A stretch of DNA of 55,420 nt from Planctomycetota bacterium (GCA_016794485.1 JAEUHV010000096.1:1-55420); one strand, 5' to 3'; positions 7,565 through 53,665 are shown, counted from the stretch's first letter. A program made the numbers and translations. The notes: generated by a model from the letters alone, not told the origin.

Positions 7565-8926
7565 ATGACTTCCTTGCTCCGAGTAGTGTTCGTCTTCTTC
7601 CTTTGCTTCACACCCTGCTTCGCGCAAGCCGCGAAACTGAAACAGGAACTCAAGGCCAAGGAGACCGCGGCGAAGAAGGACCCCGAGGCGATCTACGCGG
7701 TCGCGAAGTGGGCTGCGGAGAAATCGCTGCTCGACGACGCCAAGCGGCTCTACCAGGCCGTGCTGAAGGTCGCGCCCAACCACGAGGGTGCCAACGAAGC
7801 CCTCGGCAACCAGAACGTCGAAGGCAAGTGGCTGCCGGCCAAGGAAGCCGAGGCGCTGCGAAAGAAGGTCCAGGCTGCCGAGTTCGCCGCGAAGGGCATG
7901 GTCGACATCGGTGGCGTCTGGGTCGAGAAGGAGCTGGTCGACGATGCCAAGCGCGGCATCTTCCATCACGAGAAGGAGGCCGTGACGAAGGAGGAGAAGC
8001 TGCAGTTCCAGGCTGGCCGCGTGCGCCATCCCGACACCGGCGAGTTCATCGACCAGCGGCACCTCGAGAAAGCGAAGGGCGGCTACTACCAGATCGGCAG
8101 CGACCGCTGGGTCGACGTCAAGGAGGCCGACCAGTTCCACAGCGAACTCAAGCGCCCATGGCTCGTGCACGCCAACCACGGCCTGATCATCAGCACGCTG
8201 TCGCTGGCGAAGATCCAGGAGCTGCGCGTCTTCTTCGACCAGGGTGTCGACACCGTCGCGGTGCTGTTCGACGGCAAGATGCCCACGCCGGGCAATCGGC
8301 CGGTGGTGTGGATCGCCGCCACGGAAGCGGAATACCGCGAACTCGGCACCGCGTTCGGCGACGGCGCCGACGCGGCCGGCATGTTCCTGGTGGTGGAGGA
8401 GCGTCCGTTCTCGGTGCAGTACATCGGCGACACGCGTCCAGCCATCGTGATGAACGAGAAGGACTGGGGCTCGCGCTACGTGCGCCACGCCGCTGCGATG
8501 GCCTACGTGCACGGCCTGTCGGTCGACTCCGGCGTCGACCTGCCGATGTGGTTCGTGCACGGCGTAGGCAGCATGACCTCACGCTTCCAGACCGACGGCG
8601 ATGCCGGCTTCCTCGGCCGCGCGCACCAGCAACGAGGTGGCGTGCGCAACATGAAGGGCTTCTTCAGCGGCTTCGCGATCAGCGGCGACATGGAATCCAC
8701 CGCCATCGCCTACAGCCTCTACCAGGCTGGCCTGTGCCTCGCGTTCGCCACCAAGGGGGGCGAGGCAAAGGTGACCGAGGCCTACCAGGAGTTCGCCGGC
8801 CTGCTCACCGGGAAGACCAAGGGCAACGCCGAGAAGGCGATGACCAAGCTGCAGAATGCACTGATCGAGCACGAAGCCAAGATGGGCGCCTACCTGCAAC
8901 AGCTGGTCGCCAAGGCACCGCAGTAG
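7565..8926 (+). CDS. Secreted hypothetical protein
   Basis: The 453-aa product has the signal peptide MTSLLRVVFVFFLCFTPCFA|Q and coding-like composition. I recognised no family. Confidence 0.7.
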   Translation: MTSLLRVVFVFFLCFTPCFAQAAKLKQELKAKETAAKKDPEAIYAVAKWAAEKSLLDDAKRLYQAVLKVAPNHEGANEALGNQNVEGKWLPAKEAEALRKKVQAAEFAAKGMVDIGGVWVEKELVDDAKRGIFHHEKEAVTKEEKLQFQAGRVRHPDTGEFIDQRHLEKAKGGYYQIGSDRWVDVKEADQFHSELKRPWLVHANHGLIISTLSLAKIQELRVFFDQGVDTVAVLFDGKMPTPGNRPVVWIAATEAEYRELGTAFGDGADAAGMFLVVEERPFSVQYIGDTRPAIVMNEKDWGSRYVRHAAAMAYVHGLSVDSGVDLPMWFVHGVGSMTSRFQTDGDAGFLGRAHQQRGGVRNMKGFFSGFAISGDMESTAIAYSLYQAGLCLAFATKGGEAKVTEAYQEFAGLLTGKTKGNAEKAMTKLQNALIEHEAKMGAYLQQLVAKAPQ

Positions 8927-9121
8927 CGCGCCGATCGCGCCGATTTGGCCCCGATGCGACCTCGCCTCCGACGGGGTGCATCGGGTAGGACTCCGCCCTC
9001 CCTGGCCCGCTCGACCGGCCGGACCGTAGTGGCCGCGACAGGACCGGGACAGGGACCGTCCACTACGGACGCCAGCCCCGCAGCATCCGTGCGGGTGCCC
9101 TCCAACCCAGAACCAGATCCC

Positions 9122-10984
9122 ATGAAGTCGCTCCGATTTGCACCGGTGGCCGTGTTCGCCTTGTTGGCGCCGGTCGCAGCCCAGGGTTCGATCCTGCCCT
9201 ACCTGCCCAAGGACACGATGCTGGCGTTCGCCGCCCCGGACCTGCCGATGTCCATTGGCGACTTCGCCAAGATGCCCCTGGCGAAGATGTGGGCCGAGGA
9301 GGAAGTGCAGAACTTCCTGGCCGACGTCAAGGAGATGGCGGCCAAGCAGTACGCGGAGGGGCTGGCCCAGGCGAAGCAGATGCACAAGCAAGGGGCTCTG
9401 CCGGTCGATCCGGACGACCTGCTGAAGCTGCGGTTGAACGGCGGGGCTTTCGCGATGACGCGCCTCGAGTTCAAGATGGGGGACTTCGGCCCCTCGCCGA
9501 AGATCGGCATCGTCGCGCACCTCGACTTCGGTGAGTCGGCGCCGGTGTGGAACAAGTTGATCATGACCGGCCTCGGCATGCTCGAAGAGCGGGCCAAGGA
9601 CAAGATCGTGCGGTCGGAGTCGTCGATCGGCGACGTCAAGGTGATGTCGTTCATGCCGCCCGCCGAGTCGGGCGTGCAGATGGGGCTCAACCTCGCGATG
9701 GTCGGCAACGGCCTCGTGCTCTGCACCCTCGCCGACGACATGAAGGAGATCGTCGCGGCGATGAACGCGAAGACGCCGATGCTCGGCGCGACCAACCTGT
9801 ACCTCGCGACCGCCAAGCACGTGACCACGGCCGGCGCGGAGTGCGAGATGTTCCTGCGGCCGGAGCCGATGATCGACTTCGCGCTGTCGATCGTCCGCAT
9901 GGGCATCGAGCAGGGTGAGATGGACGGCGTCGACATGGAAGGCGTCGTCCGCGCCGTCGATGCGATGGGCCTCCGCAACCTCGGCGCCATGTCGATGGCG
10001 AGCAGCTACGTCGACGGCAAGTGCGTTTCGCGCACCTACAGCAGCACGGGCAAGCCGGACCCGACCGTCAGCGTCAAGACGATCGACACTTCGTTCCTGA
10101 AGTGGGTGCCCAAGGACGCCGTCAGTTTCGGCGCGGGTTCGATGAACCTGATCTCGTTCTACGACACGCTGGTGAAGGGGCTGCAGGCCTACAATCCCGA
10201 GTTCGCCAAGCAGACGCTCGGCCAGCTGAGCAAGCTCGAGGAGCAACTCGGCTTCAAGGTGCGCGACGACTTCTTCGGCTCGCTGGGCGACCACTACATC
10301 CAATGGTCGATGCCGATGGGCAGCATCACCTCGCCGCCCGAAGCCGCGTTCCTGATGAAGGTGAACAACGAGGACAAGCTCGTCATGGTCCTCAAGAACC
10401 TCGCCAAGCTGACCAACGGCATGGTGGAGATCGAGGAAGGCGAAAAGCGCGGCGTGAAGGCCTACCAGGTTCGCGTCAACTACGACCCCGGCCAGGGCAT
10501 GGGCATGAACCCGTTCGACATGATCCAGCCCACGTTCGCGTTCAAGGGCGGCTACATGGTCGTCGGCTTCACCGCGAGCGACGTGAAGCGCGTGTTCCAG
10601 CGCATGGATCGCGAGGACGACCCGAAGGGTGACATCCGCAGCAACAAGGAGTTCGCCGCGGTCGCCGGGTCGATCCCGGCTGGCGTCGACAGCCTGTCGT
10701 TCACCGATTGGAAGTCGAACTTCGAGAGCCTCTACCAGATCGGTACCGGCCTGCTCGCGTTCGTCCCGATGGGCGAGGACATCCCGATCGACATGTCGCT
10801 GCTGCCGGACTCCGGCACGCTGAGCAAGCACCTCTATGCATCGGTCGGCTACACCAAGACCGATGCCCTGGGCTCGGAGTCGGTGACGGTGAGTCCGTTC
10901 GGCCCCGAAGTAGGCATGCTGTTCGGCGCGGCCCTGGTCGCCGGCTTCAGCGCGTTCGGCGTGATGCGCACGCGCGGCTTCTGA
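9122..10984 (+). CDS. Secreted hypothetical protein with a C-terminal hydrophobic tail
   Basis: I trimmed the track ORF 8945..10984 to the ATG at 9122 (MKSLRFAPVAVFALLAPVAA|Q). The protein ends GPEVGMLFGAALVAGFSAFGVMRTRGF. Confidence 0.7.
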   Translation: MKSLRFAPVAVFALLAPVAAQGSILPYLPKDTMLAFAAPDLPMSIGDFAKMPLAKMWAEEEVQNFLADVKEMAAKQYAEGLAQAKQMHKQGALPVDPDDLLKLRLNGGAFAMTRLEFKMGDFGPSPKIGIVAHLDFGESAPVWNKLIMTGLGMLEERAKDKIVRSESSIGDVKVMSFMPPAESGVQMGLNLAMVGNGLVLCTLADDMKEIVAAMNAKTPMLGATNLYLATAKHVTTAGAECEMFLRPEPMIDFALSIVRMGIEQGEMDGVDMEGVVRAVDAMGLRNLGAMSMASSYVDGKCVSRTYSSTGKPDPTVSVKTIDTSFLKWVPKDAVSFGAGSMNLISFYDTLVKGLQAYNPEFAKQTLGQLSKLEEQLGFKVRDDFFGSLGDHYIQWSMPMGSITSPPEAAFLMKVNNEDKLVMVLKNLAKLTNGMVEIEEGEKRGVKAYQVRVNYDPGQGMGMNPFDMIQPTFAFKGGYMVVGFTASDVKRVFQRMDREDDPKGDIRSNKEFAAVAGSIPAGVDSLSFTDWKSNFESLYQIGTGLLAFVPMGEDIPIDMSLLPDSGTLSKHLYASVGYTKTDALGSESVTVSPFGPEVGMLFGAALVAGFSAFGVMRTRGF

Positions 10985-11036
10985 TCGACGCCGCCGCGCT
11001 TTCCTGCGCGGCCATGGGCGAGTAGGAAGCGAGGCC

Positions 11037-12821
11037 ATGCACCAGGCTTCGCTCCTCGCCCCGGTAGTCCTGCTCGCGACCCTCGCTGCGCAATCGCCGG
11101 AGCCCCTGCGCTGGCTCGACCTCGACGGCGACACCGCGCGCCAGGTCACGGTTCGACGCGAGGCGGGAAAGTACCTCGGCCATCCGACCACGGTGCTGCT
11201 GCCCGACGGCAAGACGATCCTCTGTGTGCATCCGGAAGGACACGGCAAGGGGCCTATCGTGCTGCAGCGAAGCAGCGATGGCGGGCGGACGTGGAGCGGG
11301 CCGCTGCCGGTGCCGGAGAACTGGGCGACCAGCCTCGAGACACCCACGATCCACAGGATCGTCGATCGCGCCGCGAAGGCACGTCTCGTGTTGTTCTCCG
11401 GGCTGCATCCGATCCGCAGCAGCATCTCCACCGACGAAGGTGCCACGTGGACGCCGCTGGCGCCGATCGGCGACTTCGGCGGCATCGTCGCCATGGCGAG
11501 CGTGGTAGCCCTCGCGAACGGCACGCACGCCGCGTTCTTCCACGACGACGGACGCATGTTCCGCCCAGGCGGCAAGAGGTCGCAATTCACGGTGTACCAG
11601 ACGATCTCGGCCGACGGTGGATTGACGTGGCAGAGCCCGACCGTGGTGTGGACCGGCACGGACCTCGACCTGTGTGAGCCGGGAGTCGTGCGTTCTCCCG
11701 ACGGCAAGCGCCTGGCCATGTTGCTGCGCGAAAACAGCAGGAAGAGGGGCGCGCATCTGTGCATCTCCACCGACGAGGCCGTGACCTGGTCGACGCCGCG
11801 CGAACTGCCGCCGGTCCTCTGCGGCGATCGCCACGTGGGCGGCTACGGCCCGGACGGGCGCCTGTTGTTGTCGTTCCGAGACATGAGCCCGACGAGCCCC
11901 ACGCGTGGCGACTGGGTTGCGTGGGTCGGCACGTTCGACGACCTCGACGCAGGCCGCGACGGCCAATACCGCGTGCGCCTCGCCCGCAACTGGCGCGGCA
12001 CCGACTGTGCCTACCCTGGCGTCGAAGTTCTGCCCGACGGCACGTTCGTGGCGACCACCTACGGCCACTGGGAACCGGGCCAGTCACCGTTCGTGCGCAG
12101 CGTTCTCCTCCGACTCGACGAACTGGATGCGCTGGCGCAGCGGCCGGCGCCGACGTTCGACCGCCCGTCCGAGGCGGTGGTGCCCGTCGCACGCGCCGGA
12201 AAATGGGCGCAGCGCCACGAGGCGGACATCGCCAAGGCGAAGAAGGGCAACCACCGCATCGTGTTCCTCGGCGATTCCATCACCGAAGGCTGGAACGGCG
12301 CCGGCAAGGAAGTCTGGGAGGACACGTGGGCCCCGCGCCAGGTCCTGAACGCGGGCGTGGGTGGGGACCGGACCCAGCACGTTCTGTGGCGGTTGGACAA
12401 CGGACTGCTCGAAGCACTCGCGGGCAACGGCAACGACGTCCGAGCCGTCGTGGTCATGATCGGCACCAACAACAGCAACGGCGCCGACCACCCGGCGTCC
12501 GAGATCGCCGATGGAATCGTCGCCGTCGTGCAGCGGCTGCGGCGGGGCCTGCCGACAACGAAGGTGCTCCTGCTGGCGGTCTTCCCACGCGGCGAGCGAC
12601 CGAACGCCCAACGCGACAAGTGCGCCACCGCCAGCCGTTTGGCGTTCGCGACCCTCGCTGGCGATGCGATGGTCCAATGCCGCGACCTCGGACCGACGTT
12701 CCTCGGAACGGACGGCACCATCGCCAAGGACATGATGCCGGACCAGTTGCACCTGAGCCCGGTTGCGTACCGTCGCTGGGCCGATGCCATGCTGGCCGAC
12801 CTCGATGCCATGGCGAAGTGA
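11037..12821 (+). CDS. BNR/Asp-box sialidase-like beta-propeller fused to an SGNH/GDSL esterase domain
   Basis: The signal peptide is LATLAA|Q. Four Asp-boxes are present: SSDGGRTWS, STDEGATWT, SADGGLTWQ and STDEAVTWS. The C-terminal SGNH blocks are FLGDSITEGW, GVGGDRT, MIGTNN and DQLHLS. Confidence 0.85.
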   Translation: MHQASLLAPVVLLATLAAQSPEPLRWLDLDGDTARQVTVRREAGKYLGHPTTVLLPDGKTILCVHPEGHGKGPIVLQRSSDGGRTWSGPLPVPENWATSLETPTIHRIVDRAAKARLVLFSGLHPIRSSISTDEGATWTPLAPIGDFGGIVAMASVVALANGTHAAFFHDDGRMFRPGGKRSQFTVYQTISADGGLTWQSPTVVWTGTDLDLCEPGVVRSPDGKRLAMLLRENSRKRGAHLCISTDEAVTWSTPRELPPVLCGDRHVGGYGPDGRLLLSFRDMSPTSPTRGDWVAWVGTFDDLDAGRDGQYRVRLARNWRGTDCAYPGVEVLPDGTFVATTYGHWEPGQSPFVRSVLLRLDELDALAQRPAPTFDRPSEAVVPVARAGKWAQRHEADIAKAKKGNHRIVFLGDSITEGWNGAGKEVWEDTWAPRQVLNAGVGGDRTQHVLWRLDNGLLEALAGNGNDVRAVVVMIGTNNSNGADHPASEIADGIVAVVQRLRRGLPTTKVLLLAVFPRGERPNAQRDKCATASRLAFATLAGDAMVQCRDLGPTFLGTDGTIAKDMMPDQLHLSPVAYRRWADAMLADLDAMAK

Positions 12822-12904
12822 CAAGCACGCCACGTTCCCCGGGGTTGTTCCGCCCGCAGCGAAGGGCGACGATCCGGCCCGCACTCGTGCGTAGCAGACA
12901 CACC

Positions 12905-13552
12905 ATGAACACGATCCCTACCGCCGTCGCCGCCATGGCTTTCTTGTCCTGCGCGCTGGCGCAGGATCCGCCCCCGAAGCCGCCCACGCCGCAAGAGGCG
13001 AAACCGCTGGCTCTCGGCGATGCGCTGCCGAAGGGCCTGTCGTTTCGCACGATCGACGGCAAGGTGCAGTCTCTCGACGACCTGCGCGGCAAGGTCGTGG
13101 TGCTGCACTTCTGGTCGACGAGCTGCCCGTACGAAGTCGCCGCCGAGCCCAAGCTGAACACGCTCAGTGCGCACTTCGCCGACAAGGGCGTGGTCGTGCT
13201 CGGCGTCGCCGCCAACGCCAACGAGATCGGGGCACCGCCCGAGGCGAAGGAGTTCGAGACCAAGGACGCCGACAAGCTGCCCTACGGCAAGCTGCGGGCC
13301 AAGGCCGCGGAGAGCAAGGTCAACCACGCGATCGTGGTCGACCAAGACGCCAAGCTCGGCACCTTGCTCGCAGCCAAGACGACACCGCACTGCTTCGTCT
13401 TCGACAAGGAAGGCAAGCTGCAGTACCAGGGTGCGCTCGACGACGACGGCTCGGGCAAGAACGCGAACCCGACGCGCTACGTACACGACGCAGTGACGTC
13501 CCTGCTGGCGGGGGAGAAGCCCGGAGTGCAGACGACCAAGCCCTACGGTTGA
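12905..13552 (+). CDS. TlpA/ResA-like periplasmic thioredoxin-fold protein with an atypical active site
   Basis: The signal peptide is FLSCALA|Q. VVVLHFWSTSCPYEVAAEP aligns with the TlpA motif FWATWCxPCxxExP, but the second Cys is replaced by Glu. Confidence 0.8.
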   Translation: MNTIPTAVAAMAFLSCALAQDPPPKPPTPQEAKPLALGDALPKGLSFRTIDGKVQSLDDLRGKVVVLHFWSTSCPYEVAAEPKLNTLSAHFADKGVVVLGVAANANEIGAPPEAKEFETKDADKLPYGKLRAKAAESKVNHAIVVDQDAKLGTLLAAKTTPHCFVFDKEGKLQYQGALDDDGSGKNANPTRYVHDAVTSLLAGEKPGVQTTKPYG

Positions 13553-15707: not shown

Positions 15708-17426
15708 ATGAAGCTCCTCTCGTCACTCGCCCCTGCGATGTTGTGCGCCGTTGCGGTCGCGCAGTCGCCGTTCGTCTACAACCCGGTTGCACCCGTCGGC
15801 TACTACGGCTGGAACTCGCCGCCTCCGATCACGACCGTGATGATGAACCTCACGGTCACGAACCAGGTGACCCTGCAAGCGATCGCGACGCCGCTGCTGT
15901 CGCCGGTCGGCCAGCAAGGCACGCTCGAGATCTACCTGACGAATCCGGGCATCACGACGTACGTCGGCAACGAGTTGATCGCGGCGAACTGGTCGCCGGC
16001 GGCCTCGGGCCAGATCATCGGCAAGGGCACCACCGGCACGCTGGCCGGTCTGGAAGCGACCTCGTGCCAGGCAGTCCTCGGTTCGGGCCTCACCTTGAAC
16101 CCCGGCTCGTACGGCATCGCGTTCCGCTACGTCGGTGTCACCCCGCTGCTGGCCGCCGTCGGTGTGCAGCAGACCATCGCGAACGCGGACCTGTCGATGG
16201 TCGGCGGCGCGCTGCAATACACCCCGTGGGGCGCGCTGAGCGGCGCTCCGACCGCGGCCGGCTACAACTCGTGGGCCTGGCGCGGCCAGTTCATCTACCA
16301 GCCCGGCGTGTTCCCGCACGCGTGCGCCGAGTCGTCGCTCTACGGCGCCGGCTGCTACAAGGTGTCCGGCTCCTGCTACCAGGAGTGGACCGACAGCACC
16401 CCGGGTGGCGCGGCTCCCGCGGCGGCCACGGCGCTGAACACGCGCCAGCTGACCTGGGTCTACACCGGTGCTGGCTACACCATGATTCCCGGCACGGGCG
16501 CCTACCTCGCCCCGAGCGGCACGGCCGTGTCGCTGCCGGCCACCGACGATGGTGAAGCCGCCATCACGCTGACCACGCCGTTCCCGCACCTCACCGGCGC
16601 CGCGGCGCAGCTGTTCGTGCACTCGAACGGCTATGTGTCGCTCGGCACCAACAACACGCTCAACAACGGCAACCTGAACTACGTTCCGGAGCCGAACGGC
16701 CTGCTGACCGCGACCAACACGGCGTGGTGGTGCTGGCACGACTACAACCCGACCGAGGCCGGCAGCGGCCTGATCGTCTGGGAAGAGATCGGCGGCATCG
16801 TCTACATCACGTGGAACGGCGTCGAGAGCTACCCGACGACCGCCGTCAACCCGAGCACGATGCAGTTCCAGTTCGACACGTCGACCGGCAACGTCACCTG
16901 CATCTACCAGTCGATGACCAACATCGGCGGCTCCGGCTTCCTGCAGGGCGACGACACCATCGTCGGCTACTCGCCGGGTGGCGATTCGCCGGACGCCGGC
17001 CCGTTCGACATCACCACGCTGACGTCGATCAACCTGCCGGCCGCGGAAGCGTTCCCGCTGCAGCTCAACATGACGGCGCGCCCGATCATCGGCACGACCG
17101 TGAACCTCGACACGACGCGTGAGACCGGCCTGAGCCTCGGCGTCAACTTCGTCAGCGTCGTGCAGATCCCGGCCCCGGGCTTCGACCTGGGCATCCTGGG
17201 CATGCCCGGCTGCGCGGCCCTCGTCGACATCAACGCCGGTGTCGGCAACGTCATCTCGAACCTGGGTCTCCCGGGCCTGAGCATGTCGGTCGCGTTCCCG
17301 CTGCCGAACAACCCGGCCTTCGCCGGCCTGACGATCCACAGCCAGTCGGTGTGGCTCGACCCGGCCGCCAACGCGTTCGGCGCGCTGGTCTCGAACGGCC
17401 TGACGATGGTCCTCGGCAACTTCTGA
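15708..17426 (+). CDS. Secreted protein with a NIDO-like central domain and the shared C-terminal module
   Basis: The ATG is at 15708 (MKLLSSLAPAMLCAVAVA|Q). The central region reads FVHSNGYVSLG...WWCWHDYNP...GLIVWEEIGGIVYITWNGVESY...STMQFQFDTSTGNVTCIY and resembles the nidogen (NIDO) pattern. The C-terminal roughly 125 aa are shared with four other proteins in the window. Confidence 0.7.
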   Translation: MKLLSSLAPAMLCAVAVAQSPFVYNPVAPVGYYGWNSPPPITTVMMNLTVTNQVTLQAIATPLLSPVGQQGTLEIYLTNPGITTYVGNELIAANWSPAASGQIIGKGTTGTLAGLEATSCQAVLGSGLTLNPGSYGIAFRYVGVTPLLAAVGVQQTIANADLSMVGGALQYTPWGALSGAPTAAGYNSWAWRGQFIYQPGVFPHACAESSLYGAGCYKVSGSCYQEWTDSTPGGAAPAAATALNTRQLTWVYTGAGYTMIPGTGAYLAPSGTAVSLPATDDGEAAITLTTPFPHLTGAAAQLFVHSNGYVSLGTNNTLNNGNLNYVPEPNGLLTATNTAWWCWHDYNPTEAGSGLIVWEEIGGIVYITWNGVESYPTTAVNPSTMQFQFDTSTGNVTCIYQSMTNIGGSGFLQGDDTIVGYSPGGDSPDAGPFDITTLTSINLPAAEAFPLQLNMTARPIIGTTVNLDTTRETGLSLGVNFVSVVQIPAPGFDLGILGMPGCAALVDINAGVGNVISNLGLPGLSMSVAFPLPNNPAFAGLTIHSQSVWLDPAANAFGALVSNGLTMVLGNF

Positions 17427-20148: not shown

Positions 20149-22914
20149 ATGAAGACGACGACCCTCGTGTGGACGTTCGCGGTGTGCGCCGGTGCGCTCG
20201 CTGCCCAGACCCAGGAACCGCGGCAGCCGACGCCGAGCCAGGAGATCGCCAAGATCGTCGCTGTGGAGGAACAGGAAGGCGACCTCGCCAAGGCCGAGAA
20301 GCTCTACCGCGAAGCGCTCGCCGGCACGACGTTGTCGGCCGAGGCGAAGGAACTCGCGACGCTGCGGCTCGCGGATCTGCTGATGCGGCTCGGACGGCGC
20401 GACGACGCGAAGAAGGTGATGCAGGCGTTGGACGGCGGCAAGGGGGCCGTAGTGACGCTCGACGACGTGACGACCTCGAGCCAGCCCCAGGATCGGGAAC
20501 GTGAAGCAACGCTGCGCGCGAAGGCGCGGGAACTGGTGAAGGAAGCGCACGAGAAGCGAGGCCCAACGGGGGCCCCTACCCTCCTGTTCGGAGTCGACCG
20601 TCACGTAGCCGAGCAGCTGCTGTGGATCGGGCAGCCCGCGGTGCCCGAGGTGATCGCCTACCTCGAGGGCCTGCCCAAGGCGAACGGCTTCCACCCCGAC
20701 CTGGCGCGCGGCCTCGCGGCGTTCCTGTGGCGCGTCGGCGGCGACCAGGCCAAGGCGTTCCTGCAGCAGACTCCCGGCAACGACATGCTGCGCGGCATCG
20801 TCGCCAGAGGTGCGAGTGCTTTGAAGGCGCCGGACATGCTGGCGATCGCCGAGACCTTCCTGCGCCTGCCGGATCCTGGGCTCGCCGAAGCCATGCTGGA
20901 CAATCCCCAGGACGGCCAGCCACTGGCGGGTCGCTTCGCGCCCGAGCTGCTCGTCGAGGTGATGGGCCAGGGCAGCGTGTCGCAACGCACCTGGCTGCTC
21001 GAACGGTGCACCACCGGCATCGTCGCAAAGACGCCGAGACTGTTCGACGTCGTGCGCGCGGCGATGGCGAGCACCGAGCCGGCGCTGGGCACCGCGGCGC
21101 AATCGCTGTTGACGAGTGAACGCTTCCGCAACGATCCGGACGCCATCGAGATGGTCCTCGACGCGTTCGACAGCCCGCTGCTGCGCGATCGTCACCTCAC
21201 GTTCCCGAACGATCGGGTCGTCGTGAGCGCCGAACGAGCGCGGCGCTGGCTGCCGAAGCTCGAAGCCTGCGTGCAAGCTGCCGGTCCATATCGCGACGAT
21301 TTCCGCAGCCGGTGGATCCAGAGTCTGCTGTCGATCGTGCACGAGCACACCGACGCGTCGGCACTGCCGGGCATCCTGCGCTGCATCGACCTCGGCCATC
21401 CATGCGGGTGGCTGCTGAAGGGGCGGTTGACGAAGGACAACGCGCGCGACGCGTTCACCAGGTACGACCGTATGCCGGCGAAGCACCGCGACAACTTCCT
21501 CGAGCCGTTCGGCGAGATCGACCTGCCCGCCGAGATGTTCATGGACCTGCGCACCCGGTTCGACGCATGGGTCGCCGCCGAGCCGAAGATCCGCACGTCG
21601 GTCGCCCGCATGTTCCAGCAACCGATGGTGCGCACCGGCAACCCCGACGTCGCCGCCTGGATCGTCACCGAGTGGCAACACACGTCCGACGAAGATCGCG
21701 ACAAGGACCGTTGGGCCGTCGATGCGATGCTCGAACTCGCGCGCCGCACCCAAGCACCACAGGTGCACGCGGCGCTGCGCACGCTGGCCAAGGCCGAAGT
21801 CATGTTCCCGGACCACCGCGGCCAGGTGCTGCTGGCGCTGCTCGCGATGAAGGACGACGAAGCCCTGGACCTGACCCTCGCCTACGCCGCGGAACCCGCG
21901 CGCAGCAAGCACCCGTTCGGCGGTGACGACGCGTTCGAAGGCAAGCCGATCGTGTGGCTGCTGCTGAAGGAGCCGAAGCCGCCGCATCGCTACACGGAAG
22001 CCGAAGTGCTCGGTCTGCTCGAACGCATCGGCAAGACCGGCGCACAGTTGCTCGCTCCGTACGAAGTGCAAGCGGAGCGCTTCGACGACCGCATGCTGAT
22101 GGCCTTGGTGCGTTGCCAACCGATGGCGATGCCGATCCCTCACAACAGCCGCGCTGCCGCGCATTGGACCCAGGTGGTGATGGACCTCGTCGCTGGGCGC
22201 GACAACAAAGGGCCCTTGGCCGATTTCGCGCGCGAAGCCATCGCCCGGGACGCCATCGGTCGCGCACTGCTCCCGTTCGCGCGTGTTGGCACCGTGGTCG
22301 CGTTCGCAGAGACCATTCGCCCCCTGCTCCAGGAACCGGACGAGGCCACTGCCTACCTCGCTCTCGACAAGCTGCTGGGCGCCGGGGTCGAAGTGGACCT
22401 GATCAACCTGTTGCAGAATCGCAATGCATCTCTCCGCAGCCGGGCATGCTCCGAACTGAACTCCCGCAACCGGGAGATCGGCATCGAGACCTTGGCGAAG
22501 CTGCTCGCCGACCCGAGCCATGACGTGCGCGACGCCGCCTGCTGGTACGCCAGGGATCGCGCAGTGTCTGGGGCGGTTCCCGCACTGCTCGCACTCCTTG
22601 GCAACCCCGACAACAGCAAGAGCGCCACCGAGGCCCTGACCCGGATCCGCTTCATCCACGAGCAGCAGTCCTACTGGGAACGCATCACCAAGGGCCTCGA
22701 CGCGTCGCCGGCCAGCGCCGCCGAGAAGCTGCTGCTACAGGCCAAACCCGGCGAGCCGAAGGACCAGCGCCTGCTGGCGATCATGTCGCTCGGCACCCTC
22801 GGCGCGCCGGAAGCGCTGCCGTTCCTGATCGACTGGGTCAAGGACGCCGACGCAGACGTCCAGAAGGCCGCCAAGGACGCGATCACCCAGATCCACCTGC
22901 ACCCACGGAAGTGA
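20149..22914 (+). CDS. Large secreted HEAT-repeat protein
   Basis: The 921-aa product has the signal peptide AVCAGALAA|Q. C-terminal HEAT/PBS-lyase-like repeats include LLADPSHDVRDAACWYA, ALLALLGNPD and LIDWVKDADADVQKAAKDA. Confidence 0.75.
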   Translation: MKTTTLVWTFAVCAGALAAQTQEPRQPTPSQEIAKIVAVEEQEGDLAKAEKLYREALAGTTLSAEAKELATLRLADLLMRLGRRDDAKKVMQALDGGKGAVVTLDDVTTSSQPQDREREATLRAKARELVKEAHEKRGPTGAPTLLFGVDRHVAEQLLWIGQPAVPEVIAYLEGLPKANGFHPDLARGLAAFLWRVGGDQAKAFLQQTPGNDMLRGIVARGASALKAPDMLAIAETFLRLPDPGLAEAMLDNPQDGQPLAGRFAPELLVEVMGQGSVSQRTWLLERCTTGIVAKTPRLFDVVRAAMASTEPALGTAAQSLLTSERFRNDPDAIEMVLDAFDSPLLRDRHLTFPNDRVVVSAERARRWLPKLEACVQAAGPYRDDFRSRWIQSLLSIVHEHTDASALPGILRCIDLGHPCGWLLKGRLTKDNARDAFTRYDRMPAKHRDNFLEPFGEIDLPAEMFMDLRTRFDAWVAAEPKIRTSVARMFQQPMVRTGNPDVAAWIVTEWQHTSDEDRDKDRWAVDAMLELARRTQAPQVHAALRTLAKAEVMFPDHRGQVLLALLAMKDDEALDLTLAYAAEPARSKHPFGGDDAFEGKPIVWLLLKEPKPPHRYTEAEVLGLLERIGKTGAQLLAPYEVQAERFDDRMLMALVRCQPMAMPIPHNSRAAAHWTQVVMDLVAGRDNKGPLADFAREAIARDAIGRALLPFARVGTVVAFAETIRPLLQEPDEATAYLALDKLLGAGVEVDLINLLQNRNASLRSRACSELNSRNREIGIETLAKLLADPSHDVRDAACWYARDRAVSGAVPALLALLGNPDNSKSATEALTRIRFIHEQQSYWERITKGLDASPASAAEKLLLQAKPGEPKDQRLLAIMSLGTLGAPEALPFLIDWVKDADADVQKAAKDAITQIHLHPRK

Positions 22915-42249: not shown

Positions 42250-42960
42250 ATGCGCGCACCACTCTCCGCGTTCCTGTTCGCGTTGGCCTTGCCGATGGCG
42301 GCACCTGCGCAAGCCAAGAGCACCGACACCGCCGGCCCGGCGCAGCGCATCTGGGCATCGATGATGCTGGAGCAGCAGGAGTGCTGGTTCCGGCGCACGG
42401 TCGAACTGCCGAAGGCGGCGACGCGGCTGCGGCTGTGGTTCACCTGCGACAACGAGTGCACGGTGTTCGTCGACGGCGTCGAGGTCGGCAGCAACGACGA
42501 CTGGACGAAGCTCGGCAACGCGCAGCTCGACGGCGAATGGAAGGGCAAGGTGACGATCGCGGTGCACGCGAAGAACACCGGCGGCCCAGGTGCCTTGTCG
42601 CTGTGGCTGTTGTGGGACGACGTCGACGGCGCGCACGAGATGGCCACCGACACCGACTGGCGCGTCACCGCGGTCGCGGAGACCGGCTGGAACACACCGG
42701 GCCACGACGACGCGAAGTGGGAACAGGCGACCGCGAACTTCGACACGACGTTCGGCAAGAACCTCTACAACGGCGAACCGACCGGCGTGCGCGTGTTCAA
42801 CGCGTTGACGAAGCTCGCCGATCCGATCGCGACAGCGCTCGAGCAGCTGCGTCAGGCGCCCGACCGCGCCGCGGCCTTGAAGGCACTCGAGGCGATCGAC
42901 CGCGCGGTGGTCGAGGCGCGCGGCAAGCTGTGGCAGAAGCGAGCCGCGGACCAACGCTGA
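42250..42960 (+). CDS. Secreted protein with a galactose-binding-like (rhamnosidase-N-like) domain
   Basis: The ATG is at 42250 (MRAPLSAFLFALALPMAAPA|Q). The motif CWFRRTVELPKAATRLRLWFTCDNECTVFVDGVEVG is characteristic of such beta-sandwich modules. Confidence 0.6.
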   Translation: MRAPLSAFLFALALPMAAPAQAKSTDTAGPAQRIWASMMLEQQECWFRRTVELPKAATRLRLWFTCDNECTVFVDGVEVGSNDDWTKLGNAQLDGEWKGKVTIAVHAKNTGGPGALSLWLLWDDVDGAHEMATDTDWRVTAVAETGWNTPGHDDAKWEQATANFDTTFGKNLYNGEPTGVRVFNALTKLADPIATALEQLRQAPDRAAALKALEAIDRAVVEARGKLWQKRAADQR

Positions 42961-42964: not shown

Positions 42965-43897
42965 TCACAGCACGAAGCGGTGCGCGTTCGTCGTCACGTA
43001 GAGGCCATTGCGCGCGGTCGACACCAGCGCCCCGCCTTGCACGACGAGCGTGACGCCAGAGAGCCCGGCCGGGGCCGCCATCGACCAGGTCGCGCTCCAG
43101 GCGGCAGTGCTGGGCAAGAGGCCGGCCTGCAGAACGAACAGGTTCGGCGTCCAGAGGTTCGGCAGCAGCTCGAACGGCAGGTTGCCGGAGGTCACCGTGT
43201 CGCCGAGGAACACATAGAGCGAACCGTCGGCGAACCCCACCGGGTAGCGCAACTCGGCGATCATCGCCGCACCCGCGGTCGTCGCGTGCAGTTCGGGGAA
43301 CGCGGTCGGCGTGCTCGCGACGGCCGTGCGCAGCTCGACGTGTTCGCCGGTTCCGGGCAACGGCGACGTCGGCAGCAGCGTGACCACCGCGGCGAAGTCG
43401 CCGTTCGGGTCGACGTTGTCGTTGTAGAGCGAGTCGTGTACGCCGAGGAACAGGAAGGTCGCACCCGCCGGCACCCGGACCATCAGGCTCTCGTCCCACA
43501 GGTTGCGGCTGCAGAAGAAGTCCTGCGGGATGTCCATCGGCAGGTTGCCGACATAGGTGCCGCCGCTCGCAAAGGCTGGCCCCGCCGCGATCGCGGCCGG
43601 CACGCGCGCCTGCACGTTCGACGGCAGCAGCGTGTTGCTGCCGCTGAACACGCCGACGAGGTTGTAGTAGTTGTCCGGCCCGCCATTGATGTGGCGGAAC
43701 GCACCGGTCGTCCCGACCCGCAGGCACGAGCCCGGCGTGATCCCCATGGCGCCGAGGTCGAGCACCAACGGTGACGTGGCGGTGTCGCCATTGGTGCGCA
43801 GGAACGTGGCGCGCGGGTCCAGCGGCAGGGTCCAGGTCTGCGCCACAGCGACGGCGGACAGCAGGGCGGGGGCGAACACACGGACCAGATTGCTCAT
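42965..43897 (-). CDS. Secreted hypothetical protein carrying the shared C-terminal module
   Basis: The 310-aa product has the signal peptide MSNLVRVFAPALLSAVAVA|Q. The terminal strands ...APAGLSGVTLVVQGGALVSTARNGLYVTTNAHRFVL match the family pattern. Confidence 0.7.
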   Translation of the reverse strand: MSNLVRVFAPALLSAVAVAQTWTLPLDPRATFLRTNGDTATSPLVLDLGAMGITPGSCLRVGTTGAFRHINGGPDNYYNLVGVFSGSNTLLPSNVQARVPAAIAAGPAFASGGTYVGNLPMDIPQDFFCSRNLWDESLMVRVPAGATFLFLGVHDSLYNDNVDPNGDFAAVVTLLPTSPLPGTGEHVELRTAVASTPTAFPELHATTAGAAMIAELRYPVGFADGSLYVFLGDTVTSGNLPFELLPNLWTPNLFVLQAGLLPSTAAWSATWSMAAPAGLSGVTLVVQGGALVSTARNGLYVTTNAHRFVL

Positions 43898-45585: not shown

Positions 45586-46803
45586 TCACTTCGCCGCGGG
45601 AGTCGCAGTGACGCCGCGCACGAGGGGAACGGGCCGGCCGGCGCCGAACCAGACCGCCGGGGCGAAGGCCATGCCGTTCGGACCGTAGCCCTCCTGCATC
45701 GTCGCGATCGCCCGAGTGCGGCCCGAACGCGCATGCAGCAGCTGGATCGTGTCTTTGCCGTCGACGAACACGACGAAGCGCCCATCGGCGGACCACGTCG
45801 GCCGCAACAGCGGACTCGCATTCGCGAACACCTCGCGCGACGCACCGTCGGCTGTGTCGAGCACGAACGACGCGTAGTCCTCGCCCTTGCTCTGCGTGCA
45901 GAACACCAGGTCCTCGCGCGGCGACAGCGCGGTGATGCCGTGCCGGAACGGCTGCTCGTGCAGGCGCCGGGGTTCGCCGCCGGCGATCGGGGCCAGGTAC
46001 ACCCACCAGTGGTACGGACCGTTGCCACTGACCATCGACACGAGGCTGTCGCCGAGCGAGAAGCTGTAGAGCGAGGACGTCCCTGCGGGCGTGCCGTCGA
46101 GGCGCGCGTGCACCGTGCCGGCGGCGGCATCGAGCACGACGACGGCATCGCCGGCTTCGCAGGCGAGGAAGCGCCCGTTCGGCGACCAGGCGGCGTGGTG
46201 GATCTTGCCGAGGTCGCGGCCAAGCGTGCGTTGCTGCCGTTCCTTCGCGTCGGCGCCGAATGGCACCAGCACGATGCCACCGTCGGTCGCGAGTGCCAAC
46301 CAGGCGCCGTCGGGGGACCAAGCCGGGGCGTGCGCGCGCGCGAGTTCGCGCTCATCGCCGGTCGCGAGCTCGCGCACGATCGTCGGGTGCATGCCGTAGT
46401 CGTGGTGGTCGGGCGTGCGCACGAACGCCAGCCGCGCGCCGTCCGGCGACAACGACAGCGCGTAGTCCATCGCGTGGTCGGCGGTCAGCACCGTCTCGAC
46501 GCCGTCGCGCCAGACCCACAGTTCGCTCGCCTTCGCCTCGCCGCGGGTGAACGCGACCAGCAGGCCGCCCGGATGCTCGAGCTCGATGCCACCGAGCACG
46601 TGCTCGACGAGGGTGCGCAGGTCCTGGTCTTTGGTCTCGGCAAGCAGCTCGCGCAACGGCGGGATCGCCTTCGGCCCGATCGCCTCGAGGTCGCGCGCGG
46701 CGGCGGCCTGGACCTTGGCGTCGCGGTCGCGCAGCTTCGGCAGCAGCGGCAGCGGGTCTTGCGGCAGGACGGCGAACGTGGCGAGGGCAGTGGCGAGCAG
46801 CAT
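45586..46803 (-). CDS. TolB-like beta-propeller (PD40/WD40-like) periplasmic protein
   Basis: I trimmed the ORF to the ATG at 46803, and a GTG at 46815 is an alternative. Repeated motifs include SLSPDGARLAF, WSPDGAWLAL, WSPNGRFLA and WSADGRFVVF. The gene is divergent from the ECF sigma gene. Confidence 0.7.
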   Translation of the reverse strand: MLLATALATFAVLPQDPLPLLPKLRDRDAKVQAAAARDLEAIGPKAIPPLRELLAETKDQDLRTLVEHVLGGIELEHPGGLLVAFTRGEAKASELWVWRDGVETVLTADHAMDYALSLSPDGARLAFVRTPDHHDYGMHPTIVRELATGDERELARAHAPAWSPDGAWLALATDGGIVLVPFGADAKERQQRTLGRDLGKIHHAAWSPNGRFLACEAGDAVVVLDAAAGTVHARLDGTPAGTSSLYSFSLGDSLVSMVSGNGPYHWWVYLAPIAGGEPRRLHEQPFRHGITALSPREDLVFCTQSKGEDYASFVLDTADGASREVFANASPLLRPTWSADGRFVVFVDGKDTIQLLHARSGRTRAIATMQEGYGPNGMAFAPAVWFGAGRPVPLVRGVTATPAAK

Positions 46804-49871: not shown

Positions 49872-49874
49872 CGA

Positions 49875-51212
49875 CTACTTGCCGCCGAGCAGCATCGCGC
49901 CGTGGTCGGCGACGATGAAGCCGAACGGATTCGCCGCGAGGTCCAGCGCCGCCCCCTGGCAGTAGATCGTGCCGCCGAGCAACGCCGCCGCGTTCGGGAT
50001 CGCCAGGTTCCACGTCGCGGTGTTGCCGTTGGCGAAGAACGCGTCGACCAGCGCCATGTCGACCTGCAGCGTGCAGCCTGGCATGCCGATCACTGCGAGC
50101 GACGCCGGCAGAGCCCCGAAGGTCGCCGAGAACGTGTCGCTGAGCCCGTAGAGCATCAGCCCGATCGTGTTCGCCGGCACCGGCGCGATGTCGACCGTGA
50201 ACGTCTCGCCGAGCCACGGCCGGTCCGCGCTCGTCAGCACCGGCGCGTTCGGCAACGACCCTGCACAACCCACACCGCTGGTCGCGAACGACGCCCGCAC
50301 CGTCGGCGCATACCGCCACGTCTCCGCGGTAGGCGAACTGCCGAACATCAGCACTTCCTCGCGCACGAAGTCGTACGCCAGGTACGTGTCGCTGCGCGCG
50401 CTCGGCAACGTCGCCGGCGTGCGCTGCAGCCAGGTCGTGCCGTTCCATTCCCATTGGTCCGCGATCGTCGTGCCGCCGACCATCACGATGCGGCCGCGCG
50501 CCGTGTCGGTGACCATCGAGTGGTCGAACCGCGCCGGCGGCACGTTCGACGGCAGCACCTGCTGCCAGGTGGTGCCGGTGAACCGCCAGGTGTCGTTCCC
50601 CTGCTGGTAGCCGCTGAACAGGATCAGGCCGCCGCCGACCGGATCCCACGCCATGTCGGTCGCGCGCCGGCCCGCCGGACTGGACGCGGTGACGATCTGC
50701 GTCCACGCGACCCCGTCCCATTCCCACGTGTCGAACAGGTCGGTGCCGTTGTAGCCACCCCACAGGATCGACGTGCCGCGGCTCGGCAGGTAGGCCATCG
50801 TGTGCGACCGGCGCGGGCCCGGCGTCGTCGCCGGCGTCATCTGCGTCCAGTCCACGCCATCCCATTCCCCCGTGTCGCCGAGATAGCCGCCACCGGCCGG
50901 AATGCCGCCGAACAGCACGAGCTTGCCGCGCGCCTCGTCGTAGCAAAGCGTGTGCGCAACGCGCGCGGGCGGCACGTTCACCGGTGTCGCCTGCGTCCAA
51001 GTGCTGCCGTCCCACAGCCAGGTCTCGTTGTAGCGGACACCCCCGAAGGTGCCGCCGAACAGCACCGTGCGGTCGGTGGGCAGGTGGTAGGCCATCGCAT
51101 GGGCGGAGAATGCGATCGGCGACGCGGCCGGCGACAGCAGCGTCCAGTCGGTCTGGGCCGCGAGCGGGGCGAGGAGGAGAACGGTGGCGAAGAGGGGACG
51201 GGCGATGCGCAT
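49875..51212 (-). CDS. Secreted Kelch-repeat beta-propeller protein carrying the shared C-terminal module
   Basis: I trimmed the ORF to the ATG at 51212 (MRIARPLFATVLLLAPLAA|Q). Six repeats carry patterns such as TVLFGG...ETWLWDGSTWTQ, LVLFGG...GEWDGVDWTQ, ILWGG...WEWDGVAWTQ and so on. Confidence 0.85.
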   Translation of the reverse strand: MRIARPLFATVLLLAPLAAQTDWTLLSPAASPIAFSAHAMAYHLPTDRTVLFGGTFGGVRYNETWLWDGSTWTQATPVNVPPARVAHTLCYDEARGKLVLFGGIPAGGGYLGDTGEWDGVDWTQMTPATTPGPRRSHTMAYLPSRGTSILWGGYNGTDLFDTWEWDGVAWTQIVTASSPAGRRATDMAWDPVGGGLILFSGYQQGNDTWRFTGTTWQQVLPSNVPPARFDHSMVTDTARGRIVMVGGTTIADQWEWNGTTWLQRTPATLPSARSDTYLAYDFVREEVLMFGSSPTAETWRYAPTVRASFATSGVGCAGSLPNAPVLTSADRPWLGETFTVDIAPVPANTIGLMLYGLSDTFSATFGALPASLAVIGMPGCTLQVDMALVDAFFANGNTATWNLAIPNAAALLGGTIYCQGAALDLAANPFGFIVADHGAMLLGGK

Positions 51213-51394
51213 GGTGGTAAGGCCGAACGGCGAGGTCGGGCAGGATAGCCGCGACGGCAAGGCTGGTTCGCCGCGGACTCTGCGGTGGCCGCGCCCCCGA
51301 TGGCAGATTTCACGGCGGCGGCGTGTGTGGATTCGCCGGCGCGCCCGCTGCCGAGGGTGTCGCCCCTGCGGGCGCATCCCTTTCGGACCCACGT

Positions 51395-53665
51395 ATGCGA
51401 ACCCTACTGCTCGTTCCGTTCCTGACGTTGCTGCCAGCGCTCACCGCGCAAGCACCGACGCCGCGCCCTGTTGCAGAGACCTACCCGCCCGCCGAAGAGG
51501 CCGTGGCCAAGGCGCCTGACGACCTCACCCCGACCGAACGCGACGCCCTGGCCCGGAGCCTCGGCGCCCGGCCGCAAAGCCGCGTGCTGTTCGACCAGAC
51601 GCAGGCGGACGGCACCCTGTGGGCGATCGGCACGGCTTGGAAGGCGAGCTTCGACGCCACCGGCTTCACCGCGATTCCGTTCTTCGGCAGCCAGGCGCCG
51701 CGCAACTTCCCGGTCCGCTTCGAGCTGACGCAGGCGACGGTCGGCGGAACGGCATTGCCGCTCGCGGATGGCGTGCCGGCCGTACGGGGCAACCAGGTGC
51801 GCACCGCGCGCGGCGGCTGCACCGAGGTGATCGACCTCGCGCTCGACCAGATGGAGCAGTCGTTCGTGTTCGACGCGCTGCCCAACCGCGGCGCGATCGC
51901 GGTCGACGTGCGCGTCGACACGGAACTCGCCGCGTCGATGCTGGCGAACGGCATCCGCTTCGGCAACGAGTTCGGCCACGTCGACTACCAGAAGGCGGTG
52001 GCCGTCGATGCCGCCGGCCGACGCCTGCCGCTCGCGATCGAGTGGACCGGCAACGGCGTGCACATGGAGATCCCGGCGTCGTTCGTCGAGCAGGCGCAGC
52101 TGCCGCTCGTGCTCGATCCGGTGCTCAACTACTGGTACGGCATCGCGTCCGGCCAAGCCGTGCTGCAGCACGACAGCGACGTGGCGTCGTTCCAGTCGCT
52201 GGGCGGCCGCACGCTGATCGTCTACCAGCGCGACTTCAGCGCGGGGGACACGGACTGCTGGGGTGTCCTGTTCGACGGCAACCTCGGCCTCGTGCAGACC
52301 GACTTCACCATCGACTTCACGAACGCCAACTGGAAGAACGTCGCGGTCGCGGCGCACAACTACAGCCAGAACTTCCTGGTCGTCGCCGAAGTCGAGACCG
52401 TGCTGAGCTGGTTCATCGTCGGCCGCACCGTCGCAGCCAATGCTGTGGTCGGGGCGCAGTTCGACATCGAACGCGACGGTGTCGTCGGCGTGCCGGGCAA
52501 CAGCTTCTCGCCCGACGTCGGCAGCGACCCGTACTACGGGCCGGGCCGCTACACGGTCGTGTTCATGAAGCGGCCGAACATCTTCAGCAACGCGCAGACG
52601 ATCTACTACAAGCAGGTCAACCCCGCGGGCACCCTGGTGACCACGGCGCCCGTGCTCGTCGACACGAACGCCCAGGGCGTCGACCGTCCGTCGATCAGCA
52701 AGTCGTGCGGCCAATCCAACGGCCAGCCTGCCTTCTGGCTGCTCACCTGGCAGCGCACCTGGGTCGGCCTCAGCGGCGACCAGGAAGTCTGGGGTCGTTT
52801 CGTGAACTGGAACGGTGCGATCCAGGGCACCTCGCCGTTCGCCATCGCGTTCACCCCTGCCGAAGAGACCGCGCCGTCGTCCGGCTCGCCGATCGACGTG
52901 AACGGCACGCGCTACTGGCCGATGTGCCACGAGTACGCGACCGCGCTGGGCCAGCCGCGCGACGTCAACGCCAAGCTGCTGAACAGCAGTGGCGGCACGG
53001 TCGCCGGATTCACCGTGAACACGCCGGTGCCGGGTGAGGACGACCGCGAGCCCGAGATCGACTCCGACGGCACGCGCTTCGTCGTCACGCGGACGAACGG
53101 TACCGGCGTCGAAGCGGTCACCGCGGCGTACCTCGCGGCGAGCAACACGTTCCGCGTCGAGGAGCGCACCGCACTGATCACGTCCGGCCTGGACACCTAC
53201 GGTGAGACCAACATCTGCGCCGACTACAGCGGCGGTGGCTCGATGTCGCCGCGCTACTTCCTCTCGTTCAGCGAGCAGTCGTCGAACACGTTCCGGTTGG
53301 AGGTCTTCGGTGGCTGGCTGCCCGGCCAGTTCTTCGTGCCGCAGACGAACCCGGGCGGCGTCACCACGATGGCGGTGACCGGCTCGCCGGTCATCGGCCA
53401 GACGGTCGGCTTCGACGTGCAGCCGGGCCCGCTCGCGGCGGTGCACATCGGCACGCCGAACTACATCCCGTTGAACGCGCTCGGCTGCAACTGCGTGCAG
53501 GGCGTCGACCCCGTCGCGACGTTCCTGTCGCCGTGGTCGTGGACGATCCCGAACAACGTGGTGTTCGTCGGCCTGCAGTTCGCCGCCCAGGGCTTCCACC
53601 TGACCGGCACGCAATGCCTCGGCTTCATCGACCTCAGCCAGTCGGTGAACTTCACGATCCGCTGA
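51395..53665 (+). CDS. Large secreted hypothetical protein carrying the shared C-terminal module
   Basis: I trimmed the ORF to the ATG at 51395 (MRTLLLVPFLTLLPALTA|Q). The product is 756 aa. I recognised no family for the body of the protein. Confidence 0.7.
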   Translation: MRTLLLVPFLTLLPALTAQAPTPRPVAETYPPAEEAVAKAPDDLTPTERDALARSLGARPQSRVLFDQTQADGTLWAIGTAWKASFDATGFTAIPFFGSQAPRNFPVRFELTQATVGGTALPLADGVPAVRGNQVRTARGGCTEVIDLALDQMEQSFVFDALPNRGAIAVDVRVDTELAASMLANGIRFGNEFGHVDYQKAVAVDAAGRRLPLAIEWTGNGVHMEIPASFVEQAQLPLVLDPVLNYWYGIASGQAVLQHDSDVASFQSLGGRTLIVYQRDFSAGDTDCWGVLFDGNLGLVQTDFTIDFTNANWKNVAVAAHNYSQNFLVVAEVETVLSWFIVGRTVAANAVVGAQFDIERDGVVGVPGNSFSPDVGSDPYYGPGRYTVVFMKRPNIFSNAQTIYYKQVNPAGTLVTTAPVLVDTNAQGVDRPSISKSCGQSNGQPAFWLLTWQRTWVGLSGDQEVWGRFVNWNGAIQGTSPFAIAFTPAEETAPSSGSPIDVNGTRYWPMCHEYATALGQPRDVNAKLLNSSGGTVAGFTVNTPVPGEDDREPEIDSDGTRFVVTRTNGTGVEAVTAAYLAASNTFRVEERTALITSGLDTYGETNICADYSGGGSMSPRYFLSFSEQSSNTFRLEVFGGWLPGQFFVPQTNPGGVTTMAVTGSPVIGQTVGFDVQPGPLAAVHIGTPNYIPLNALGCNCVQGVDPVATFLSPWSWTIPNNVVFVGLQFAAQGFHLTGTQCLGFIDLSQSVNFTIR

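Follow-up and report, generated by a model that had tools for sequence, protein, structure and literature searches.

The closest described system is the Q-rule of Bacteroidetes, in which the glutamine (Gln) at position +1 of exported proteins is cyclised by a periplasm-facing glutaminyl cyclase, stabilising these proteins (PMC5837995; PMC10653852). The Q-value, in SignalP-based counts, has a mean of 71% and a maximum of 88% in this phylum (PMC5837995). The survey of Bochtler et al. (2018) covered Bacteroidetes, Chlorobi, Spirochaetes, Chlamydiae and Cyanobacteria; Planctomycetes were not included, and the Planctomycetes–Verrucomicrobia–Chlamydiae (PVC) superphylum was sampled via Chlamydiae only, with low Q-values (PMC5837995). 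High values outside Bacteroidetes were reported for Ignavibacterium album (77%), Chloroherpeton thalassium (55%) and a few cyanobacteria (40–67%) (PMC5837995). Szczesniak et al. (2023) described the rule as exclusive to Bacteroidetes, unique among prokaryotes and tied to a proteolytic lifestyle (PMC10653852). The present analysis concerns a contig of 55,420 nucleotides assigned to a Planctomycetota bacterium (GCA_016794485.1 JAEUHV010000096.1:1-55420; this whole stretch is called the window below), in which the signal peptides of exported proteins are followed by Gln.

The initial annotation of the window, made from the sequence alone, had named 16 N-termini in which a small-x-small motif precedes Gln. 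Translation from each start reproduced all 16 motifs at their coordinates, including that of the deacetylase starting at 1965 (minus strand). These signal peptides are 18–29 residues long and consist of a short n-region with 1–2 basic residues and a hydrophobic core of 10–15 residues. The cleavage calls rest on the −3/−1 rule. In one further exported protein, the PD40/HEAT protein starting at 46803 (minus strand), Gln stands straight after the hydrophobic core with Pro at −1; it is counted as atypical, its site being ambiguous. The window has 17 cleavable signal peptides in all, 16 with canonical Gln and one with atypical Gln, and the 17 proteins belong to 17 different families. No cleavable signal peptide of a non-lipoprotein without Gln was found in the 55 kb. 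The remaining hydrophobic N-termini (17634, 29175, 31005–32936 and 47451) are membrane anchors or belong to multi-pass proteins; this non-cleavable set includes an anti-sigma factor, a histidine kinase and two membrane proteins of large size. Four lipoproteins (6714 on the minus strand, 13775, 14596 and 45061) use a lipobox Cys, as had been claimed, and have no +1 Gln, an exemption of the signal peptidase II type.

Gln accounts for 3.2% of the window codons. The probability of finding it in at least 16 of 17 cases is about 4e-11 even at a deliberately high background of 19%, which is the rate of small-x-small↓Q (the arrow marks the presumed cleavage site) in a set of 73 signal peptides encoded on unrelated metagenome contigs of high G+C content. 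The earlier claim that the pattern exceeds chance is borne out in this way. Its wording as fifteen consecutive hits calls for a slight reservation, as a few of the sites allow an alternative cleavage two residues downstream. The Gln-first pattern is a genuine Q-rule-like signature.

Relatives of the contig were traced with the 620-aa DUF3352-like protein starting at 9122, which has at least 255 homologues; all but one of their source names read 'Planctomycetota/Planctomycetes bacterium' or plain 'bacterium'. One genome per GTDB species was scanned with an alignment of this family. The scan gave 62 loci, all from metagenome-assembled genomes (MAGs), nearly all titled Planctomycetota by many different submitters; among the records of this clade are a contig of 6.6 Mb and a chromosome of 7.2 Mb. 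The 9122-family protein was also searched exhaustively against 1.84 billion cluster representatives; on look-up, the names of the representatives were 'Planctomycetota bacterium' MAGs, with no cultured relative among them. The gene order round the marker (PIG-L, Metallophos, ParA, ParB, PPIase, HNH, the 7565 homologue, DUF3352) is kept in relatives, and the order from PIG-L to DUF3352 recurs in the 62 genomes of the clade as well as in Planctomycetota MAGs at a greater distance. By labels and synteny together, the assignment of the contig to Planctomycetota is well supported. Neither rRNA nor tRNA genes were detected in the window by Rfam and tRNA scans, and no 16S or marker set is present there.

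A more precise position is suggested by a locus with 47% marker identity (L044), which carries the title 'LBMAG_Planctomycetes_hypo.bin1_CL500-15'; the group CL500-15 is part of OM190, an uncultured class (PMC5607371). OM190 is equated with the 'Saltatorellus' clade, which ranks among the four class-level lineages of Planctomycetota and comprises the GTDB classes UBA1135, UBA8108 and GCA-002687715; isolates of this clade have a G+C content of 67–70.5% (bioRxiv 10.1101/817700; PMC11840708). None of the searches recovered these cultured isolates. The G+C content of the window (~69%) lies within this range.

Conservation of the pattern was followed in the orthologues of the 9122 protein and in the clade loci, the latter a sample of ~1.2 Mb in all, with ~20 kb per genome, taken round one chromosomal locus. 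Of the 117 full-length orthologues of the 9122 protein, at 55–89% identity, 116 have the small-x-small↓Q motif (A↓Q). Q21 forms an invariant alignment column and the preceding A or S is fixed, and the position after Q21 is variable (G, T, S, D, N, E, Q or V). Among cluster representatives with an intact N-terminus, Gln is found in 41/41 at 31% identity or more and in 18/40 at 30% or less. An automated, predictor-free strict filter, which recorded the first strongly polar residue after the core and the small-x-small↓Q motif, selected 244 signal-peptide-like N-termini in the clade loci; Gln is the first strongly polar residue in 175 of them, and 155 have small-x-small↓Q. Inspected by eye, most of the rest proved to be lipoproteins, false positives from cytoplasmic proteins, a small membrane protein or the signal anchors of a GDSL-like family, and others have Gln after a c-region that holds a polar residue (e.g., LRA↓Q). 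Once anchors and false positives are removed, the Gln rate in the clade loci is roughly 95% (a figure not based on SignalP), and it is steady from 74% down to 37% marker identity. Clustering of the clade loci gave ~27 exported families with Gln against 3–5 plausible exceptions, such as ASAA↓D in L003. A Q-rule secretome has +1 Gln in the majority (>~50%) of its substrates and in many unrelated families; both features are found here, by values for the window and the clade loci that are not SignalP-based.

The pattern is specific to the lineage. In the PSD1/planctomycete-cytochrome family (Planctomycetia, Pirellulales, Isosphaerales and some Verrucomicrobiota) small-x-small↓Q occurs in 4/89 cases, and in other Planctomycetota loci (canonical L066–L070 and the outgroups L072 and L073) in 1/18; in the 79 unrelated GC-rich metagenome contigs already used as the background it was found in 14/73 signal peptides. 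Planctomycete plasmids were unsuited as controls, having too few secreted proteins, with the probe family on one of them only. The outgroup loci L072 and L073, from 'Planctomycetota bacterium' MAGs, keep the gene order, and there the signal peptides of the 7565 and 9122 orthologues end VDA↓A, TQA↓T, AGA↓T and AFG↓T; for the 7565 protein, orthologues in syntenic outgroups have VDA↓A, TQA↓T and TRA↓D. The syntenic loci L194 and L195 are intermediate in Gln use. These matched outgroup orthologues are the most telling control: the same proteins lack Gln there, and Gln is therefore a property of the secretion and maturation system of the lineage, not of particular proteins. The pattern has near-total penetrance, is conserved clade-wide and is absent from canonical Planctomycetia and from the syntenic outgroups.

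The reading to which we give a probability of about 0.72 is that an uncultured GC-rich Planctomycetota clade, probably within OM190/'Saltatorellus', possesses a signal peptidase I secretome obeying the Q-rule, most likely with the mechanism as in Bacteroidota. By this analogy, signal peptidase I would cut after AxA and expose an N-terminal Gln, which could be cyclised to pyroglutamate in the periplasm by glutaminyl cyclase or slowly unaided. The pyroglutamate would block the N-terminus and might shield exported proteins from aminopeptidases.

Several points weigh against this reading. Cleavage directly before Gln, cyclisation of Gln and a cyclase as its agent are all proposed by analogy, the cleavage site itself being read from the sequence. 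A glutaminyl cyclase search, suggested by the initial annotation as a check, was made with the type I enzymes At, Xc, Mx and Zm (sequences from PDB alignments) and the human type II enzyme as queries; no tblastn match was obtained in the window and 73 related and control loci, in which the clade DNA represents one chromosomal neighbourhood and is uninformative on absence. Scanning of metagenomes with a GC-codon-biased DNA pattern for the type I motifs NG[IV]A…TGKxWP revealed at least 80 genuine cyclase loci, none of which could be attributed to the clade among the matches listed. The sites VP↓Q and AM↓Q are disfavoured by canonical signal peptidase I, and Pro or Met at −1 may indicate an altered peptidase specificity instead of simple convergence. 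A naive −3/−1 scorer was dropped, as it often preferred a neighbouring small-residue site (e.g., TLA↓AQ). Finally, the placement within OM190/'Saltatorellus' is probable and comes from submitters' labels and the one labelled relative at 47% marker identity. The Q-rule interpretation of the initial annotation stands as regards the pattern in a host outside Bacteroidota; as regards the machinery, no gene for a cyclase or signal peptidase I occurs in the window or in the ~1.2 Mb of one locus, where no match to E. coli LepB was found either (one chromosomal neighbourhood per genome). Most bacteria are said to possess a cyclase (PMC10653852), and the presence of one would for that reason not be decisive alone.

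Two candidates were rejected during these searches. The locus L091 was considered as a clade cyclase locus, and the match it shares with clade loci proved to be a generic sigma-70 factor. The M28 protein of L071 has leucyl aminopeptidases, and not cyclases, as its best PDB matches. It is a lipoprotein of the M28 aminopeptidase-like type (8225–9889, plus strand) encoded beside a distant Gln-type DUF3352 homologue on a Planctomycetota MAG contig of 72.8% GC; N-terminal pyroglutamate would protect against enzymes of this kind.

A small exported family of 100–135 aa, present in 11 clade loci (e.g., L005 40–399, L010 131–496, L053 14449–14853), has, like the PD40/HEAT protein of the window, Gln straight after the core, preceded by Pro, Met or Ile; examples from these proteins are …AALAMVP↓QDP, …LLAM↓QDPQ and …FAVLP↓QDP, and such a −1 residue is atypical for signal peptidase I. 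Shine-Dalgarno cores were counted in the 30 nt upstream of 33 well-defined window starts and in the loci L001–L065. They are rare, being found in 6/33 window starts and in 45/270 (17%) of window and clade starts together, vs. 8% in shuffled sequence; other Planctomycetota loci have them in 8/19 cases. The leaders are rich in C (41%), which occupies position −1 in 71% of cases. Bacteroidota are the classic Shine-Dalgarno-scarce phylum, and Planctomycetia are reported to use the motif at ~48% (PMC10783764), and its scarcity would be a second Bacteroidota-like trait of the clade.

These features are brought together in a tentative proposal, to which we give limited credence: that a deep, mostly uncultured clade, possibly the whole of OM190/'Saltatorellus', independently evolved a near-absolute Q-rule together with Shine-Dalgarno-poor initiation, two traits that are otherwise typical of Bacteroidota. 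Its signal peptidase and N-terminal processing would have co-evolved with +1 Gln as an element of the cleavage or maturation signal, one that overrides the −1 rule even at VP↓Q and AM↓Q. If true, the clade would mature its Sec substrates in a distinct way of its own and would not simply duplicate what Bacteroidota do. Another, rather improbable explanation is that +1 Gln is a recognition determinant of the clade's signal peptidase I, with an S1' pocket tuned to Gln, and that the mature N-terminus stays free Gln. The penetrance of ~95–100% in the window and orthologues, above the Bacteroidetes mean (PMC5837995), agrees with it, as does the retention of Gln after Pro, Met or Ile (MVP↓QDP, LAM↓QDPQ and the window protein at 46803), where Gln may outweigh the −1 residue. 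Known signal peptidases I, however, accept almost any +1 residue but Pro, and N-terminal Gln cyclises spontaneously with time, which makes a lasting free Gln chemically unlikely. Replacement of Gln in P. gingivalis lowers protein stability (PMC10653852), a further point against this explanation.

Alternatively, Gln could be a conserved c-region residue at −2, with cleavage two residues downstream (AxAQx↓), or cleavage could fall upstream. Gln is followed by A in 3 of the 17 window cases, a formally valid AQA↓ site, and by G or S in several more; AQA c-regions are common in Proteobacteria, and adjacent sites are inseparable by the naive scorer. Cleavage directly before Gln is favoured by the sequence because A, S or G precedes it in nearly all cases. 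A cut two residues further on is unlikely because the residue after Gln is often unfit for −1, many orthologues having D, E, N, Q, T, V or K there. With such a shift the proteins at 11037, 15708 and 51395 would have Pro at +1, and near-100% Gln at −2 is likewise without precedent. A displaced cleavage site is quite unlikely on this evidence.

It is slightly less likely still that the contig is truly of Bacteroidota or a close relative in the Fibrobacterota–Chlorobiota–Bacteroidota (FCB) group, with the Planctomycetota labels arising from binning or classification errors. Labels are fallible, one homologue being labelled Neolewinella sp. and one locus Luminiphilus sp., high-GC Bacteroidota (Rhodothermia) exist, and the scarcity of Shine-Dalgarno cores is shared with that phylum (PMC10783764). 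Against such errors stand more than 55 independent MAGs from many studies, megabase contigs and the 7.2-Mb chromosome among them, as well as the relative whose label names CL500-15/OM190, a lineage defined by 16S. Other Planctomycetota MAGs share synteny with the locus; one of them, L072, encodes an extracytoplasmic function (ECF) sigma factor of the planctomycete type (PF07638), and the marker orthologues in syntenic Planctomycetota MAG loci carry a T2SSG domain. Pfam and NCBIfam scans of the 55 kb detected no type IX secretion (T9SS) sorting domain, no SusC/D-type genes and no gliding genes. With these genes missing from the window and relatives labelled Planctomycetota in syntenic order, the initial view that the host is outside Bacteroidota is upheld. 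A sub-threshold match to Por_Secre_tail (19.6 bits vs. the cutoff of 23) was observed in the PPC-domain protein (35711–37414, plus strand); it is internal, covering residues 351–395 of 567, and is not a C-terminal sorting domain.

The weakest explanation, that chance, composition or gene-calling artefacts produced the pattern, has next to no probability and is refuted by the counts: spurious open reading frames are indeed abundant in GC-rich DNA, and ~19% of signal-peptide-like N-termini in unrelated GC-rich contigs already show the motif, but 17/17 departs from either the composition or this background at p < 1e-10, codon usage, Pfam domains and conserved orthologues back the coding sequences, and Gln is invariant among orthologues as its neighbours vary and is missing from outgroup orthologues.

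The coordinates of the signal peptides are given in the table. Self-trained codon-usage gene calling placed ~41 genes in the window. The coding sequences of the listed exported proteins are backed by codon usage, Pfam and NCBIfam domains and conserved orthologues, some of the exported families having no known domain in these scans. Two gene models required revision. In a long minus-strand open reading frame the AtuA domain begins at residue 236; the real AtuA gene starts near 42065, and because of this the reading frame at 42250 is free of overlap. The long minus-strand frame 45586–47346 has its real start at 46803, yielding the 17th exported protein.

Table. Signal peptides of the exported proteins of the window; the coordinates include the +1 Gln codon. 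Columns: protein; coordinates; strand; presumed site (↓); remarks.
PIG-L-domain deacetylase, start 1965	1906..1965	-	MRLLMAVGCGLALVAAAAS↓Q (AAS↓Q)	orthologues in related loci keep Q in 39/40
453-aa exported protein	7565..7627	+	…TPCFA↓QAAKLK	Q in 56/57 orthologues; alternative AQA↓ formally possible
DUF3352-like 620-aa protein	9122..9184	+	…APVAA↓QGSILPYLP	family used to trace the clade
BNR/GDSL hydrolase	11037..11093	+	…ATLAA↓QSPEPL	
Redoxin/AhpC-like protein	12905..12964	+	…SCALA↓QDPPPK	could instead be a lipoprotein (lipobox FLS↓C)
572-aa protein, function not assigned	15708..15764	+	…CAVAVA↓QSPFVY	
921-aa TPR/HEAT protein	20149..20208	+	…AGALAA↓QTQEPR	
DsbD-like thiol:disulfide interchange protein	22970..23041	+	…ISPLAA↓QDGTLT	
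320-aa coiled-coil protein	28958..29026	-	…ALSVPA↓QSFPEN	
PPC-domain protein	35711..35767	+	…AAALPA↓QKVAEV	
455-aa protein, start 39422	39333..39422	-	…VVAGAARA↓QKEPAP	true start may be the internal ATG at codon 8
Glycerophosphodiester phosphodiesterase (GDPD)	39533..39592	+	…SLAPAVA↓QGRVER	
236-aa protein	42250..42312	+	…LPMAAPA↓QAKSTD	alternative AQA↓ formally possible
310-aa protein, start 43897	43838..43897	-	…LLSAVAVA↓QTWTLP	
PD40/HEAT protein, coding sequence 45586–46803	46759..46803	-	MLLATALATFAVLP↓QDP (AVLP↓Q)	not in the list of the initial annotation
Kelch-repeat protein, start 51212	51153..51212	-	…LLLAPLAA↓QTDWTL	
756-aa protein	51395..51451	+	…LLPALTA↓QAPTPR	AQA↓P excluded by +1 Pro

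ParA and ParB are encoded at 3409–5038 (plus strand) beside a conserved block in the flanks (1–11000 of the window). The block of PIG-L, ParAB and DUF3352 is a useful syntenic anchor and is likely origin-proximal. Position −2 in the lipobox of several clade lipoproteins is occupied by Gln (ALMQS↓C, ASLQG↓C, TGLQG↓C; L033 7104–7523, L036 7163–7582, L019 6510–6806 and L063 16588–16905).

An unrelated metagenome contig (L080; JGI contig Ga0049084_10000773, 12.7 kb, GC 0.65) has Gln after 7 of 8 signal peptides. It encodes a type I glutaminyl cyclase with a Gln-first signal peptide of its own (…APATEA↓QRQP) and carries TonB-dependent receptors of the CarboxypepD_reg type. This contig probably belongs neither to the clade of the window nor to Bacteroidia, and may represent a further unrecognised Q-rule lineage. 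The pairing of a cyclase with the Q-rule exists elsewhere, as this contig illustrates, and has no bearing on the clade of the window.

Full-text literature searches found no papers that connect Planctomycetota with the Q-rule, with pyroglutamate or with glutaminyl cyclase. This agrees with the initial annotation, whose author was not aware of a description of the rule in the host lineage. The published claim of exclusivity (PMC10653852) is challenged by a phylogenetically remote clade with an apparently stricter rule, the surprise being tempered by the known outliers. A second clade with a boundary to its sister lineages shows that the trait arose more than once or moved between lineages, and a comparison of Bacteroidota with this clade could show what selects for pyroglutamate-capped secretomes. 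In practice, +1 Gln is a simple signature for recognising and binning a poorly known lineage and should improve start-codon and cleavage-site calls in clade MAGs, where signal-peptide predictors trained on model organisms may misplace the sites. If cultured strains of the Saltatorellus clade share the rule, it is directly testable.

As judged from sequence, the clade would present a known phenomenon in a new lineage, one that is remote and for the most part uncultured; the rule would be unchanged, its penetrance apparently higher and its phylogenetic boundary mappable. The likeness to the Bacteroidetes Q-rule lies in the AxA end of the signal peptide, the Gln-first mature protein, the many unrelated families involved and the exemption of lipoproteins via the lipobox Cys. 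Unlike in Bacteroidetes, the host is a Planctomycetota clade (PVC superphylum), not a member of Bacteroidota (FCB), and some clade sites have Pro or Met at −1. The penetrance is apparently higher (~95–100% vs. a mean of 71% and a maximum of 88%), a rough comparison, as our own figures are not SignalP-based. In Bacteroidota pyroglutamate and the cyclase have been demonstrated, whereas for the clade they are proposed by analogy; the exposed Gln would be the expected substrate of glutaminyl cyclases of type I (plant/bacterial beta-propeller) or type II (M28-like), and none occurs in the sampled clade DNA. The outliers known outside Bacteroidetes resemble the clade in that the majority of predicted signal peptidase I substrates are Gln-first, which shows that the rule is not limited to a single phylum in the strict sense. 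They are, however, FCB relatives or isolated cyanobacterial species, reported as unexplained outliers, whereas the trait here marks a whole deep clade that counts at least 62 species-level genomes and is visibly bounded against its sister lineages.

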